A stretch of 22,537 nucleotides of DNA, from contig NZ_JBHSTI010000018.1 in the NCBI RefSeq assembly GCF_042660085.1, positions 1 through 22,537 of the forward strand, written 5' to 3'. The number at the start of each line of letters is the position of its first letter. Position 1 is the first letter of the stretch. Both the position numbers and the translations under genes were made by a program. This document shows, one piece after another, positions 3,354 to 22,306 of the stretch. Below the pieces are notes generated by a model, which was given only the letters and a program-made list of their open reading frames with translations, made no database searches and was not told where the DNA came from. The DNA comes from Longivirga aurantiaca (GTDB taxonomy: Bacteria > Actinomycetota > Actinomycetes > S36-B12 > CAIYMF01).

Positions 3354-4865
3354 TCAGCCGCGGGTGGCGGGGGTGAACGTCGGGCGCAGGGCGCCATCGG
3401 CGCGCAGCCCGAGGATCTCCTCGACCACGTGACCTACCGCGACCAGCGTCGCCTCGGTGTGCGGCCGTCCGATGAGCGTGAGGCCCACCGGCAGGCCGTC
3501 GACGAACCCCATGGGCAGGCACAGCACCGGCCAGCCCGCGATGGACGGTGCCGGGCTCGCGAGGCCGCCGCCGGCGAAGTGGTCGCCGTTGGTGAGGTCG
3601 CTCTTCCAGGCCGGGCAGTACGCCGGGGCGATGAGCAGGTCGATGTCGTCGTCGGCGTCGAACGCGGCCTGCAGGTTCTTCGTCACCGCCCAGTCGAGGC
3701 AGATCTGCCGCGCCTCGTCGTACCTCTGGCCGGCCCGGCCGCCCGATGCGAGCGCCATCTCGAGCAGGCTCTGGTCGAAGAACGCGAGCTCGGTGTCGGC
3801 GTTCTCGCGGTTGAACTCCACGATGTCGGCCATGGTCGGCGCACCTGCGCCGAACCTGTCGAGCAGGTAGGCGTTCATGTCGTCGAGCATCTCGCCGACG
3901 AGCACCACGAGCTCGTTGTCCTCGTACTCGCCGGTGTGCGTGACCTCCGACGTCACGAGCGTGATGCCGCCGTCGAAGAGCGCCTGCGTGACTCCGAGGA
4001 ACACGTCGTCGGTCGCGATGTGGCCCGAGAGCCAGGAGTTCGCGACGCCGAGGGTGATGTCGTCGGCGGCCAGGCTGCCGATCGCGGTCGCGTACGCCGC
4101 CGAGCCGGTCAGCACGTCGAGCAGCAGAGCGACGTCGCGCACCGAGCGCGCCATCGGGCCGGGCATGTCCTGGCTCGCGCTGATCGGCACGATGCCCGCG
4201 GTCGGCACGAGCCCGAGGGTGGGCTTGAGGCCGGTGATCCCGTTGAGCGAGCTCGGGCATGTGATCGAGCCGTCGGTCTCGGTGCCGATCGCGAGCGGGG
4301 CGAGGCCGGCTGCGACGGCGGCGCCGCTGCCGGACGACGAGCCGCCTGCGCTGCGGTCGAGCGCCCACGGGTTGCCGGTGAGCCCGCCGAGGGCGGACCA
4401 GCCGGAGGTGGATCGGTTCGAGCGGAGGTTGGCCCACTCCGAGAGGTTGGTGACGCCGAGCACGATCAGCCCGGCCGCGCGCATCGAGGCGACGATCGGG
4501 GCGTCGCGGGTCGCCGGCCGGCCGTCGAAGAACAGCGACCCGGCCGACGCCGGCATGCCGAGCACCTCGACGTTGTCCTTCACCACGACCGGTACGCCGT
4601 GCAGCGCGCTGCGCACCGTGCCTGCCGCGCGCTCGGCGTCGAGCCGGTCGGCCTGCTCGAGCGCATCGGGGCACACCGCGAGGATCGAGCGCAGGTGCAC
4701 CGCGCCCGGGCCGTCGACGGCCTCGATCCGCCCGAGCAGCGTGCGGACGATCGCGACCGAGGTCGTGCGTCCGGCGGCGAGCTCGTCGGCCAGGGCGCTC
4801 GCGTCGGAGAAGCCGAGATCGGCGCTGGCGGCGTGCGGGTCGAGCGAGGCGTGGGGGCTGGTCAC
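3354..4865 (-). CDS. Amidase-signature (AS) family amidase
   Basis: The sequence contains the GGSSSGSGAAVAAG signature, plus ...VVVKDNVEVLGMPASAGS... and TDGSITCPSS. I prefer GTG 4865 as the start because codons 4866-4910 use rare A/T-ending codons. GTG 4910 is the alternative. Confidence 0.85.
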   Translation of the reverse strand: MTSPHASLDPHAASADLGFSDASALADELAAGRTTSVAIVRTLLGRIEAVDGPGAVHLRSILAVCPDALEQADRLDAERAAGTVRSALHGVPVVVKDNVEVLGMPASAGSLFFDGRPATRDAPIVASMRAAGLIVLGVTNLSEWANLRSNRSTSGWSALGGLTGNPWALDRSAGGSSSGSGAAVAAGLAPLAIGTETDGSITCPSSLNGITGLKPTLGLVPTAGIVPISASQDMPGPMARSVRDVALLLDVLTGSAAYATAIGSLAADDITLGVANSWLSGHIATDDVFLGVTQALFDGGITLVTSEVTHTGEYEDNELVVLVGEMLDDMNAYLLDRFGAGAPTMADIVEFNRENADTELAFFDQSLLEMALASGGRAGQRYDEARQICLDWAVTKNLQAAFDADDDIDLLIAPAYCPAWKSDLTNGDHFAGGGLASPAPSIAGWPVLCLPMGFVDGLPVGLTLIGRPHTEATLVAVGHVVEEILGLRADGALRPTFTPATRG

Positions 4866-14192: not shown

Positions 14193-15233
14193 TCAGTAGG
14201 CCGTGCCGTGGGTGGGGTGCGAGTCGGTGCCCGACGATCGGATGACGACGACGCGGTCGCCCTTCTGCAGAAGGGTCACCACGCCCTCGTCGAACCGGTG
14301 CACTGCACCGTCGCGTACGACGGCGAGCACCACCACGCCATGTGCCAGCAGCGACTGCGGTGGCACGCCGAGCTCGGCCGGCGTGATGGCGCGCTCGATG
14401 ATCTCGAGGCCGCGCACAGGCTCGAGCAGGTCCTCCACGATCTGACCGGCCACCGGCGACGCGAGCGACAGGCCGAGCAGGCGCCCCGCCGACTCCGCCG
14501 TCGGGATGACGATGCTCGCGCCGCTCTGCCGGAGCACGGTGATGTTCTGGCTCTCGCGGGCCGAGGCGACGATCGTGGCGGCGGGGGTCAGGCGCCGTGC
14601 CGTCAGCACGACGAGAACGGAGGTGTCGTCGCGGTCGGTCGCGACGACGACCCGCGCGGCCTTCGCGACCTCGGCCGCGGCGAGCACCTCCTCGCGGGTG
14701 GCGTCGCCGACGACCCCCACGCAGCCGAGCGCGGTGGCCTCGTCGACGGCCTGGCGCGTCCGGTCGACGACCACGATCTCTGCGGCCGGCGTCCCCTGGT
14801 CGAGCACCGCCTGCACTGCGCTGCGTCCGGTGACGCCGAACCCGACCACGACGGTGTGTGCGTTCACGCGCTGCCTCCAGCGGTTGGCACGGAAGTCGTC
14901 ACGGCTGCGCTGGGTGAGCACCTCGACGGTCGTGCCCACGAGCACGATGAGGAAGAGGAAGCGCAGCGGCGTGATGACGAGGGTGTTGGTGAGCCGGGCG
15001 ACGTCGGAGTACGGCGTGATGTCGCCGTACCCGGTCGTGGAGAGCGACACGGTCGCGTAGTAGAACGCGTCGAGCCAGCCGATCGGCTCCTCGGTGACGT
15101 CCCGGTAGCCGTCGCGCTCGAGGTAGACGATGACCGCGGTGATCACGAGGCACGCCGCCGCGATGCCGACGCGGGCGAGGATGGACGCGAGCGGGCTCAG
15201 CCTCCGCGCAGGCAGCCGCAGCACCGACGTCAC
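14193..15233 (-). CDS. Two-TM potassium channel with cytoplasmic RCK (TrkA-N / TrkA-C) domains
   Basis: The selectivity filter reads ATVSLSTTGYGD between two hydrophobic helices. A Rossmann-like VVVGFGVTGRS (RCK/TrkA-N) and a C-terminal TrkA-C-like segment follow. The start is GTG at 15233 with GGAAAGG upstream. The stop at 14193 is 1 nt from the qor ATG at 14191. Confidence 0.85.
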   Translation of the reverse strand: MTSVLRLPARRLSPLASILARVGIAAACLVITAVIVYLERDGYRDVTEEPIGWLDAFYYATVSLSTTGYGDITPYSDVARLTNTLVITPLRFLFLIVLVGTTVEVLTQRSRDDFRANRWRQRVNAHTVVVGFGVTGRSAVQAVLDQGTPAAEIVVVDRTRQAVDEATALGCVGVVGDATREEVLAAAEVAKAARVVVATDRDDTSVLVVLTARRLTPAATIVASARESQNITVLRQSGASIVIPTAESAGRLLGLSLASPVAGQIVEDLLEPVRGLEIIERAITPAELGVPPQSLLAHGVVVLAVVRDGAVHRFDEGVVTLLQKGDRVVVIRSSGTDSHPTHGTAY

Positions 15234-15248
15234 GCGCCGAACCTTTCC

Positions 15249-15267
15249 AGATGAAGGCGACCTTCAT
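15249..15267 (-). terminator. Small hairpin between the moeA-like stop and the K-channel RBS (terminator or attenuator candidate)
   Basis: GATGAAGG-CGA-CCTTCATC forms an 8-bp stem with a 3-nt loop. It lies 75 nt after the stop at 15343 and directly 5' of the channel RBS. The arms are identical to the inner arms of the 5679-5709 hairpin. Confidence 0.45.
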
Positions 15268-15342
15268 CCCATAGAGCCGTACGAACCGGCCCATCATCCC
15301 GGGAGCTCTCCCCAGGCGACGTCGGGCGACGGACTGAACCCG

Positions 15343-20434: not shown

Positions 20435-20438
<4 letters not shown>

Positions 20439-22306
20439 GCGAGCGACCGGTGCGGATCGCGAACTGCTCGGGGTTCTTCGGCGACCGGCTCGACGCGGCA
20501 CGCGAGATGGTCGAGGGCGGCCCGATCGATGTGCTCACCGGCGACTGGCTCGCCGAGCTCACGATGCTGATCCTCGCCCGGCAGCGGATGAAGCACGGCG
20601 TGGGCAGCGGCTATGCCCGCACGTTCCTCACGCAGATGGAGCAGGTGCTCGGCACCTGCCTCGACCGCGGCATCAAGGTCGTGTCGAACGCCGGTGGCCT
20701 CGACCCAGCCGGCGCCGCGGCGGCGCTGCGCGAGAAGGCCGACGAGCTCGGCCTGGGGCACGTGCGCATCGCGTACGTCGAGGGCGACGACCTCATGCCG
20801 CGCCTCGACGAGCTGAAGGCCGCGGGCGAGACGTTCACCAACCTCGACACCGGCGAGACCCTCGAGTCGTTCGGCATGCCGCCGCTGACCGCGAACGCCT
20901 ACCTCGGCGGCCGCGGCATCACCGCGGCGCTCGCGGCAGGCGCCGACGTCGTCATCACCGGTCGCGTCACCGACGCCGCGCTCGTCGTGGGCCCGGCCGC
21001 GTGGTGGCACGGCTGGTCGTACGACGACGCAGCCAACCTCGACCGGCTGGCCGGCGCGGTGGTCGCGGGCCACGTGATCGAGTGCGGCGCGCAGGCGACC
21101 GGCGGAAACTACGCGTTCTTCTCCGACGTGCCCGGGCTCGAGCACGTCGGCTTCCCGTGGGCCGAGGTGGCCGACGACGGCAGCAGCGTGATCGGCAAGC
21201 ACGACGGCACCGGCGGTCTCGTGAGCCTCGGCACCGTCACCGCGCAGCTGCTCTACGAGATCGGCGGCCCGGAGTACGCGAACCCGGACGTGACAGCGCA
21301 CTTCGGCACGATCGAGCTGGCCGAGGTGGCACCCGACCGCGTCGCCATCTCCGGCGTACGCGGTCTGCCCGCGCCCGAGACGGTCAAGGTCGCGGTCAAC
21401 ACCCTCGGCGGCTTCAGGAACACGGCGTCGCTGGTGGTCACCGGGCTCGACGTCGAGGCCAAGGCCGATCTCGCCCTCCGCACGGTCGCCGGCGTGACTC
21501 TGCAGCAGGCGCAGTCCCTCTCGCCGGTCGATCTCGCCGCCGCGAGCACGTTCCGGGTGCGCGAGCTGCACGCCGACCTGCTGCGCCGCGACCGCGAGGA
21601 CCCCGCCACCACCGCGGACGCCCAGGCCGAGCTGCGGCTCACCGTGAAGGCCGCGGATCCGAAGGCGGTCGGCAAGGCCTTCACCGCGCCCATCGTCGAG
21701 AGCGCGCTCGCGACGTACCCCGGCATGTTCCCGACGGCGCCGCCCGCCGAGGGCACGCCGTACGGCGTCTACTGGCCGACCACCGTGCCGGCGTCGATCG
21801 TGACCCAGACCGTCACCCTCGACGGCGAGGTCGTCGCCACCACGCCGTCCGGTCTTCGAGTTACTGCCCACATGGTTGTTGAGGAGGCTGCTTCAACGAC
21901 CATGTGGGCAGTAACTCGCGAAAGCGAGGGGGACGGCGCCGGGCCGCGGCTGCCGCTCGGCACGTTCGTCGGGGCGCGCAGCGGAGACAAGGGCGGCAAC
22001 GCCAACGTCGGGCTGTGGGTACGTCGCTCCGGCGACGACCGGCTCGACCGGCACCGCTGGGAGTGGCTGGCGAGGCTCGTCGTCGAGGACGGCATCAGCA
22101 CGCTGCTGCCGGAGTCAGCCGCTCTCGAGCACGAGGTGCACGTGCTGCCCAACCTCCTCGCGGTCAACGTCGTCATCCGGGGCTGGCTCGGCCGTGGCGT
22201 CGCCGACTCGACCAGCCTCGACCCGCAGGCCAAGGGCCTCGGCGAGCACCTCCGTGCCCGAATCGTGCAGATCCCCGAACACCTTCTGCGAGAGGACGCC
22301 TCGTGA
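20435..22306 (+). CDS. Acyclic terpene utilisation AtuA-family protein (DUF1446 N-terminal region plus a small C-terminal SGDKGG domain)
   Basis: The product begins MSERPVRIANCSGFFGDRLDAAREMVEGGPIDVLTGDWLAELTM and contains ...VITGRVTDAALVVGP...HVIECGAQATGGNY... The C-terminal part reads ...LGTFVGARSGDKGGNANVGLWV. ATG 20435 overlaps the upstream stop. The N-terminal 480 aa of track ORF 18992..22306 are out-of-frame junk. Confidence 0.85.
21857..21918 (+). other. 62-nt near-perfect hairpin (28-bp stem, 6-nt loop) embedded in-frame in the atuA-like CDS
   Basis: CGAGTTACTGCCCACATGGTTGTTGAGG-AGGCTG-CTTCAACGACCATGTGGGCAGTAACTCG. Of 28 pairs, 26 are Watson-Crick and 2 are wobbles (T21877.G21898 and G21883.T21892), read on the sense strand. 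Arm GC is about 54%, against about 72% for the surroundings. A CTCGC-GAAA-GCGAG mini-hairpin (21915-21928) overlaps its 3' end. Confidence 0.9.

Follow-up and report, generated by a model that had tools for sequence, protein, structure and literature searches.

The stretch of DNA analysed here (hereafter the window) comprises 22,537 nucleotides of Longivirga aurantiaca (contig NZ_JBHSTI010000018.1, positions 1 to 22,537 of the forward strand) and carries, on the plus strand at 20435..22306, an atuA-like gene encoding a protein of 623 amino acids with AtuA and AtuA_ferredoxin domains. Inside this gene, whose reading frame stays open across it, lies a palindromic repeat unit with a core of 62 nucleotides (21857..21918, no strand assigned). 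Very probably, this hairpin is one copy of a dispersed family of 62-nucleotide palindromic repeats native to a high-GC, Nanopelagicales-affiliated clade, and represents an in-frame copy that the host gene tolerates.

The core unit consists of a left arm (21857-21884), a loop (21885-21890) and a right arm (21891-21918), and reads CGAGTTACTGCCCACATGGTTGTTGAGG-AGGCTG-CTTCAACGACCATGTGGGCAGTAACTCG. A repeat search of the window returned arms of 26 nucleotides (21857-21882 and 21893-21918) that are 96% complementary; when the wobbles T21877.G21898 and G21883.T21892 are counted, the stem reaches 28 bp around the loop AGGCTG, the same 28-bp stem and 6-nucleotide loop within a coding sequence that a preliminary description of this DNA had reported. 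The folding check proposed there shows the 62-mer to be far more stable than shuffled sequences on both strands, with -51.7 kcal/mol (z-score -13.2) for the sense RNA and -43.2 kcal/mol (z-score -11.1) for the antisense RNA, each matched by none of 200 shuffles; in a 106-nucleotide context, the energies are -72.9 (sense) and -62.7 kcal/mol (antisense). A further pairing in the 106-nucleotide fold, of ACGCCGTCC with GGACGGCG, is not kept in orthologs and was taken as chance. The low GC content pointed out earlier is likewise borne out, at 54.8% for the 62-mer against 72.4% for the window and 92.8% at the third codon positions (GC3) of the host gene.

Each arm can be divided into a family-wide outer arm, CGAGTTACTGCCCA(C/A)A (21857..21872, partner 21903-21918), and a subtype-specific inner stem, TGGTTGTTGAGG (21873..21884, partner 21891-21902), both without an assigned strand. 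Flank statistics point to a probable full extent of 21849..21928 (again unstranded), including weakly palindromic extensions, GGTCTT on the left and CGAAAGCGAG on the right, and this extent coincides with a low-GC island at 21844-21931. Extensions like those of the window, TTCTTCGAG and CTCGCGGACCTCAG, are present at other family copies. The window copy scores 76.9 bits with the covariance model R1, and it is the single copy within the window, also by a covariance-model search; an Rfam scan of 21700-22100 gave, at best, generic hairpin matches of at most 27.8 bits against thresholds of at least 40.

Translated in frame as codons 475-495, the element contributes about 21 residues, RVTA...WAVTR, to the AtuA-like protein. 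Its position at the junction of a large N-terminal and a small C-terminal domain, as first described, agrees with the Pfam limits, which assign residues 6-461 to AtuA and 508-608 to AtuA_ferredoxin and leave the element between them. The interdomain linker (codons 462-507; 21818..21955, plus strand) was delimited from an alignment of 120 AtuA homologs, the Pfam limits and an AlphaFold2 model. It is hypervariable in sequence and length across the alignment, and the closest of the 120 homologs share the peptide form RVTAQ...WAVTR with a middle that varies from protein to protein. In the model, which has a mean predicted local distance difference test score (pLDDT) of 80.4 and a predicted template modelling score (pTM) of 0.85, pLDDT drops below 50 at residues 478-499 and residues 472-504 form coil; the linker containing the element is thus predicted to be disordered. 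This low pLDDT and the hypervariability of the linker are the grounds on which the protein is taken to tolerate the element.

Two of the three reading frames on each strand pass through the element without a stop, the third containing TAA within GTAAC, and in the frame used by atuA the stem joins third codon positions to one another. Only 10 of the 21 element codons end in G or C, against 93% for the gene. A protein-database search with a 42-column tandem of the element peptide produced 211 word-sharing candidates, none with E ≤10, the tandem query being uninformative. Around the gene, four-nucleotide overlaps (ATGA/GTGA) join the carboxylase biotin-carrier, atuA, TetR and acyl-CoA dehydrogenase genes (window 20435-20438, with equivalents at the related loci L002-L006), which implies translational coupling through the hairpin-containing operon.

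Beyond the window, a pattern scan for GTTACTGCCCA-N20-50-TGGGCAGTAAC in one representative genome per species returned 51 stretches, 49 of them, each with a 56-nucleotide span, in three related metagenome-assembled genomes (MAGs) labelled Candidatus Nanopelagicales or uncultured Actinomycetes. The remaining two, from Patescibacteria and Peptococcaceae, have other spans and look like chance matches. The MAGs are GCA_038316965.1, the JBFWNE assembly and CAWJMG MFD02832.bin.1.159. The palindrome checked for copy number in relatives therefore occurs 49 times in three MAGs and is not single-copy; such a multi-copy dispersed family fits the analogy, drawn in the preliminary description, with insertions resembling transposable elements of the miniature inverted-repeat kind (MITEs) or repetitive extragenic palindromic (REP) sequences, or with in-frame Rickettsia palindromic elements (RPEs). 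A metagenome scan for the inner-stem subtype of the window, AAATGGTCG, added three more copies, all intergenic and immediately 3' of a stop codon.

The family consensus comprises CGAGTTACTGCCCAAA, a genome-specific inner stem, a variable centre and TTTGGGCAGTAACTCG. Anatomy and pairing were assessed in an ungapped alignment of 55 copies, in which three zones can be distinguished, namely invariant outer arms, an inner stem with few subtypes and a variable centre of about 6-18 nucleotides. Columns 2-14 and 49-61 are invariant throughout, an invariance imposed in part by the search pattern, and 91.5% of the cells that the 28-pair structure requires to be paired are paired. The search for covariation among homologs suggested at the outset gave a clear outcome in the inner stem, where pairs 17-21 alternate between G-C, U-A, A-U and C-G from subtype to subtype with a covariation score of 0.288, reached by none of 500 shuffles.

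The copies occupy a characteristic habitat. With genes called by composition (GC3 ≥0.82 and GC1 > GC2), a stop codon lies within 71 nucleotides in 45 of the 50 non-atuA copies and within 17 nucleotides in 39 of them. Both orientations are seen, and convergent genes often border a copy on either side; 13 are placed between two convergent stops, where the element fills nearly the whole spacer. Conservation of the flanks reaches 6-10 nucleotides past the core, with the consensus cTGAgGTCCG before the initial CGAG of the core and CGGACCtCAg after its final CTCG, and the TGA of the neighbouring gene often falls within this palindrome extension, at -6 to -4. No T-run follows the hairpin 3' in the window copy or in other copies. 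Apparent intragenic copies at L012, L016, L034, L048, L051 and L055 were set aside as lying upstream of the true gene start or in shadow open reading frames, those at L012, L016 and L048/L051 being upstream of gene starts; this leaves the atuA copy as the sole clear copy inside a coding sequence among more than 50.

Additional arrangements that involve parts of the element were observed elsewhere. At L027 (4030-4096), two copies of a perfect 14-bp palindrome, GTAACTCGAGTTAC, stand 48 nucleotides apart and correspond to two element termini placed head to head; the pair sits upstream of a tadA-like open reading frame, with a normal family copy after the stop of that frame. A remnant, a junction or a site resembling an operator are conceivable readings of it. 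The 167-codon open reading frame flanked by the element and GTAACTCGAGTTAC was considered as a transposase, an idea dropped when HAE and PCxxC motifs, recognised by eye, suggested that its product is a TadA-type deaminase. At two contig ends of the MAG JBBQAY (L049 2468-2644 and L058 1-175), a repeat of at least 175 nucleotides, 96% identical between the two, starts with one element arm, CGAGTTACTGCCCAAAGTGGGGTAAT, followed by a 10-nucleotide variable block. The repeat folds strongly (z-score -5.2); the contigs break inside it, and AbiEi_4-like and PadR genes adjoin. An Rfam scan of the L058 contig-end repeat gave no match. The element may have its parent, or an extended version of itself, in this repeat.

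Comparison of orthologous sites separates the inheritance of positions from that of sequences. Among the three MAGs, 15 orthologous site pairs were found, the identity of their flanks being 74-91%. JBBQAY and JBFWNE account for 13 of these pairs, atuA included, and in every one the JBBQAY copy has the inner stem GTGGGG and the JBFWNE copy does not. This mirrors the subtype counts of each genome: in JBBQAY, 23 copies were counted, 22 with GTGGGG and one with TCGACG; in JBFWNE, 22 copies, none with GTGGGG (nine TGCTCG, four TCGACG, three TGCACG, three AGCACG and three others); and in CAWJMG, with only about 5 family copies against the 22-23 of the other two, four with GTGGGG and one with GGGGGG. 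Since the inner stem at orthologous sites matches the subtype of the host genome, concerted evolution is indicated, and, as judged from sequence comparison, the sites are inherited and the stems homogenised within each genome. The variable centres keep a partial site-specific likeness, GGAGGCT being common to the atuA copies of the window, L002, L003 and L004. In the atuA copy at L001 (2532-2593), the left arm belongs to the TGCACG subtype while the right arm is near TGGTCG, and six positions are mismatched; this copy looks half-converted rather than randomly decayed.

The palindrome is found at the same nucleotide position of atuA in at least eight other independent assemblies, and the loci L001-L005 carry the same element there. 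The near orthologs have the outer stem CGAGTTACTGCCCAAA in common, and their inner stems differ yet stay paired, as AAAGTGGGGTTATGG/CCGATAACCCCACTTT in L003 and AAATGCTCGTTGAGG/CTTCAACGAGCATTT in L004. Farther orthologs, at 78-81% protein identity, also have a palindrome at this position, and in L062 (CGAGTCACTGCCCC...GGGCAGTGACTCG), L064 (CTGGTCCACGTGA...TCACGTGGACCAG) and L007 (CGAGTTACACCTC...GAGGTGTAACTCG) its sequence has diverged in a compensated manner; L063 retains a GC-rich remnant only. The outer 28 nucleotides are identical to those of the window (28/28) in four of five atuA orthologs, while fourfold degenerate sites elsewhere in the gene are 70-76% identical, and the constraint on the element evidently acts at the nucleotide and not at the protein level. 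Because so many independent assemblies share the same position, the atuA copy is regarded as old and not as an artefact, and the foreign or recent origin that the preliminary description had read from the low GC content is contradicted. The comparison of orthologs across the junction, also suggested there, showed the element to be absent in some relatives as well. It is lacking in the protein P0002, 91% identical to the window AtuA and its sister in a neighbour-joining AtuA tree built without the linker, whose gene is intact. At L006 (11420-11500, MAG CAWJMG), the locus of the closest relative of the window AtuA, an unrelated 39-nucleotide segment, GGPVGTVTIEPAY, takes the place of the element; the tree position favours secondary loss or replacement, although L005 and L006 alone cannot distinguish an empty site from a deletion.

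Several known systems share individual properties with this family. REP sequences and REPINs (PMC3337134; PMC3116915) of Enterobacteria, Pseudomonas and Stenotrophomonas are likewise short, extragenic, multi-copy palindromes inherited vertically at fixed sites, and REPINs have two inverted arms around a short spacer. Several REP classes flank orthologous genes for REP-associated tyrosine transposases (RAYTs) in related strains (Nunvar et al., 2013; PMC3686654), and lineage-specific sequence classes in related genomes are matched here by the 15 orthologous pairs and the subtype counts. The high-copy, mainly extragenic, imperfectly palindromic character of REPs is also shared, with at least 22-23 copies in two MAGs, 5 in the third, and 45 of 50 by gene ends. 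However, REPs have a GTAG/GTGG foot at a hairpin of 20-40 nucleotides, whereas the arms here begin with CGAGTTACTGCCC, without a foot, and form a 62-nucleotide hairpin; the REP/RAYT system further differs in that the present arms are not themselves small hairpins, the host is actinobacterial, copies number tens and not hundreds, and one copy is translated. MITEs such as Correia, ERIC and Nezha are dispersed small non-coding units with two terminal inverted repeats and occasional in-frame genic insertions (reviewed in PMC10969869). Inverted repeats around a short non-coding core are common to both, the arms here measuring 26-28 nucleotides and the variable centre 6-18; the differences are that no target-site duplication accompanies the present copies and that the only lead to a parental insertion sequence is the L049/L058 repeat of at least 175 nucleotides starting with one arm. 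Because the REP foot tetranucleotide and the MITE target-site duplication are both missing, the element is not filed as a REP or a MITE.

The TRIT motif ('Tuberculosis Rho-independent terminator'), of which 147 copies are given for M. tuberculosis in the parts of Gardner et al. (2011; PMC3152330) drawn on here, offers an actinobacterial parallel, since it too is a sequence-conserved, bidirectional palindromic hairpin in many copies. In these parts, TRIT is described as having a very narrow distribution of distances around the stop codon and as overlapping the gene end; similarly narrow placement is seen here, within 17 nucleotides of the core in 39 of 50 copies and with TGA in the extension. 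TRIT is there reported to be restricted to Mycobacterium, and the likeness drawn here is one of description; the same parts of the paper mention neither a translated genic copy nor genome-specific subtypes at orthologous sites. A canonical intrinsic terminator, consisting of a hairpin and a U-tract, differs from the present family in that no copy has a T-run.

For the genic copy, the closest comparison is with the RPEs, reported by Ogata et al. (2000) to be palindromic repeats lying in frame in protein genes and translated, typically at tolerant surface or linker positions. They measure 100-150 bp and occur in many genes per genome of an AT-rich, obligate intracellular alphaproteobacterium. 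The in-frame translated palindrome at a tolerant position is common to both; in contrast, the present element has 62 nucleotides (about 80 with its extensions), only one of more than 50 copies is genic, and no recurrent genic insertion was seen. Homology with the Rickettsia elements RPE-1 to RPE-10 is unlikely given the host and the GC content. The term Rickettsia palindromic elements is used in a passage of PMC1779305. By analogy, the element is judged to behave like REP/REPIN and TRIT sequences, and its genic copy like an RPE, within the broad known class of dispersed bacterial palindromic repeats.

These observations show where the family lives, and a mechanism consistent with them can be proposed. 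Copies usually reside directly 3' of stop codons, in many cases where two genes converge, and in an ancestor of the clade one copy appears to have entered the single region of atuA able to accommodate it, the disordered linker between the domains, in a stop-free frame. At gene ends, the hairpin, once transcribed, probably works on the 3' end of the RNA, where it would support factor-assisted termination or block exonucleases, as REP and TRIT have been proposed to do. Each copy, the coding one included, has an inner stem that follows the subtype of its own genome, so that the palindrome stays near-perfect, and this matching is probably achieved by templated homogenisation at the DNA level, through short-tract, arm-wise gene conversion or a REP/RAYT-like replacement. 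The atuA hairpin itself is most likely a tolerated passenger, unwound by translating ribosomes and devoid of a gene-specific function.

A number of observations weigh against this interpretation. The copies of the source genome itself are seen only within the window (one copy), and the family counts come from relatives. The element-bearing atuA genes fall into three separate clades of the neighbour-joining tree, and therefore, unless the tree is unreliable, a single ancient insertion must have been followed by several losses; this is also the simplest reading, and recurrent insertion into atuA may have occurred instead. Additionally, a tblastn search of about 0.5 Mb of flanking sequence with IS200 TnpA and E. 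coli RAYT queries of approximate sequence, a weak test, yielded nothing below E = 0.49, and the copies show no target-site duplication, their flanks being inverted without a direct repeat. Mycobacterial RNA polymerase requires a U-tract for intrinsic termination in vitro, according to the part of PMC3993855 consulted; without such a tract, classical intrinsic termination is unlikely here, and a factor would have to assist if termination takes place, which has likewise been suggested for TRIT. Finally, the long retention of a hairpin of -52 kcal/mol in a translated region could itself reflect function.

Among the competing explanations, the one closest to the preliminary description holds that RNA structure on the sense strand is selected in the atuA mRNA, for interdomain ribosome pausing, for RNase III processing or for initiation at ATG 21902 behind GAGGAGG. 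The sense fold indeed exceeds the antisense fold in stability by 8.5 kcal/mol, the hairpin is kept in many orthologs, and the two non-Watson-Crick pairs of the window's element are both of the G.U type when read on the sense strand, as had been noted. The further claim that this pattern betrays sense-strand selection is not supported across the family, in which G.U and A.C number 22 and 26 on the transcribed strand of the 32 copies that can be oriented by a single adjacent gene; a single transition would turn either wobble of the window into a Watson-Crick pair, and in both the partners are third codon positions, of which 93% are G or C in this gene. The same sequence occurs in both orientations at 50 or more non-atuA sites, the L005 copy has C.A and C.U mismatches, the L001 copy has its six mismatches, and the gene of P0002, the sister protein, is intact without the element. 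Regarding the internal start, GAGGAGG (21881-21887) and the in-frame ATG (21902) are both present as described, but the start is not kept, codon 490 being ATG only in the window, whereas orthologs have ATT, CTT or AAT there; L001, L003 and L005 do not conserve GAGGAGG. The competing hairpin CTCGC-GAAA-GCGAG (21915-21928) exists as well, but L001 and L002 have lost its pairing. The idea of a functional RNA hairpin specific to the sense strand of atuA is thus not supported, and this explanation is considered very unlikely. An alternative that assigns function to the whole family sees the copies as TRIT-like, factor-dependent and sequence-specific terminator or processing hairpins, with the atuA copy co-opted as a conditional attenuator: upon uncoupling of translation, the hairpin would form and the TetR, acyl-CoA dehydrogenase and enoyl-CoA hydratase genes that lie downstream would be expressed less. 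The tight placement of copies at stop codons and the position of atuA within an operon whose stop and start codons overlap are in keeping with this idea, and the strong conservation of the outer stem suggests a recognising factor, in parallel with the argument made for TRIT in the consulted portion of PMC3152330. Set against them are the single intragenic copy among more than 50, the eroded or half-converted state of the L001 copy and the loss of the element from an otherwise intact operon in the CAWJMG lineage (L006); such co-option appears unlikely.

The passenger interpretation must also be compared with accounts that explain the subtypes differently. Repeated independent insertion of the active subtype of each genome into the same hot spots, instead of homogenisation, would be in line with the three neighbour-joining clades of element-bearing atuA genes, and an active, larger element is hinted at by the longer single-arm repeat with which two JBBQAY contigs end. 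However, the junction lies at the same nucleotide in all atuA orthologs, the centre keeps its site-specific GGAGGCT (window, L002, L003 and L004) despite differing inner stems, and all 15 orthologous pairs are occupied in both genomes, with no polymorphism between empty and filled sites except at L006; this account is held to be somewhat less probable still than attenuator co-option. A more far-reaching proposal, about as improbable as that co-option, is that the inner stems are genome-specific 'dialects' produced by an active, sequence-directed homogenising system, based on a trans-acting recogniser or on templated arm conversion, which would also overwrite translated DNA, so that some 7-10 linker codons are rewritten in step with intergenic repeats, and that the intragenic copy is in addition kept as a translation-dependent attenuator or processing site in the atu-like operon. 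As for an assembly, adapter or chimera artefact, library hairpins can yield perfect long palindromes, but the same position recurs in assemblies made independently from different samples (ENA, JGI and NCBI) and the sequence is present at more than 50 other loci, which reduces the likelihood of this explanation to a negligible level.

The atuA copy is an unusually clean example of a translated repeat evolving in concert with intergenic members of its family. The same repeat stands at gene ends and in a translated linker, at orthologous sites and in several species, and this combination allows concerted evolution of dispersed palindromes to be separated from selection on protein or mRNA. For annotation, the low-GC, rare-codon palindromic stretch in the atuA-like gene is best read as a repeat copy and not as an RNA switch, a fusion scar or an artefact. 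We know of no repeat elements described in this uncultured actinobacterial lineage, for which a REP/TRIT-like hairpin family would be new. Furthermore, if a recognising factor exists, the system would offer a tractable parallel to the unexplained mycobacterial TRIT motif.

Other palindromes were observed in the same genomic neighbourhoods. A GC-rich hairpin, CGAATCCGTCGTTTCCCGG...CCGGAAACGACGGATTCG, is conserved at the orthologous positions L002 6054-6111 and L004 5867-5916, at or just upstream of the start of a carboxyltransferase gene; an exact search of the window with its first 11 bases gave no match. In addition, a second, unrelated low-GC palindromic repeat family has the form TGTTCGGCTCTATTGGATGAAGG-N3-CCTTCATCCAATAGAGCCGAACA. 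One of its copies lies in the window at 15226-15300, between ion-channel and moeA-like genes; its right arm is intact and its left arm has decayed. Two intact intergenic copies are present in L002 at 4686-4734 and 14489-14541.

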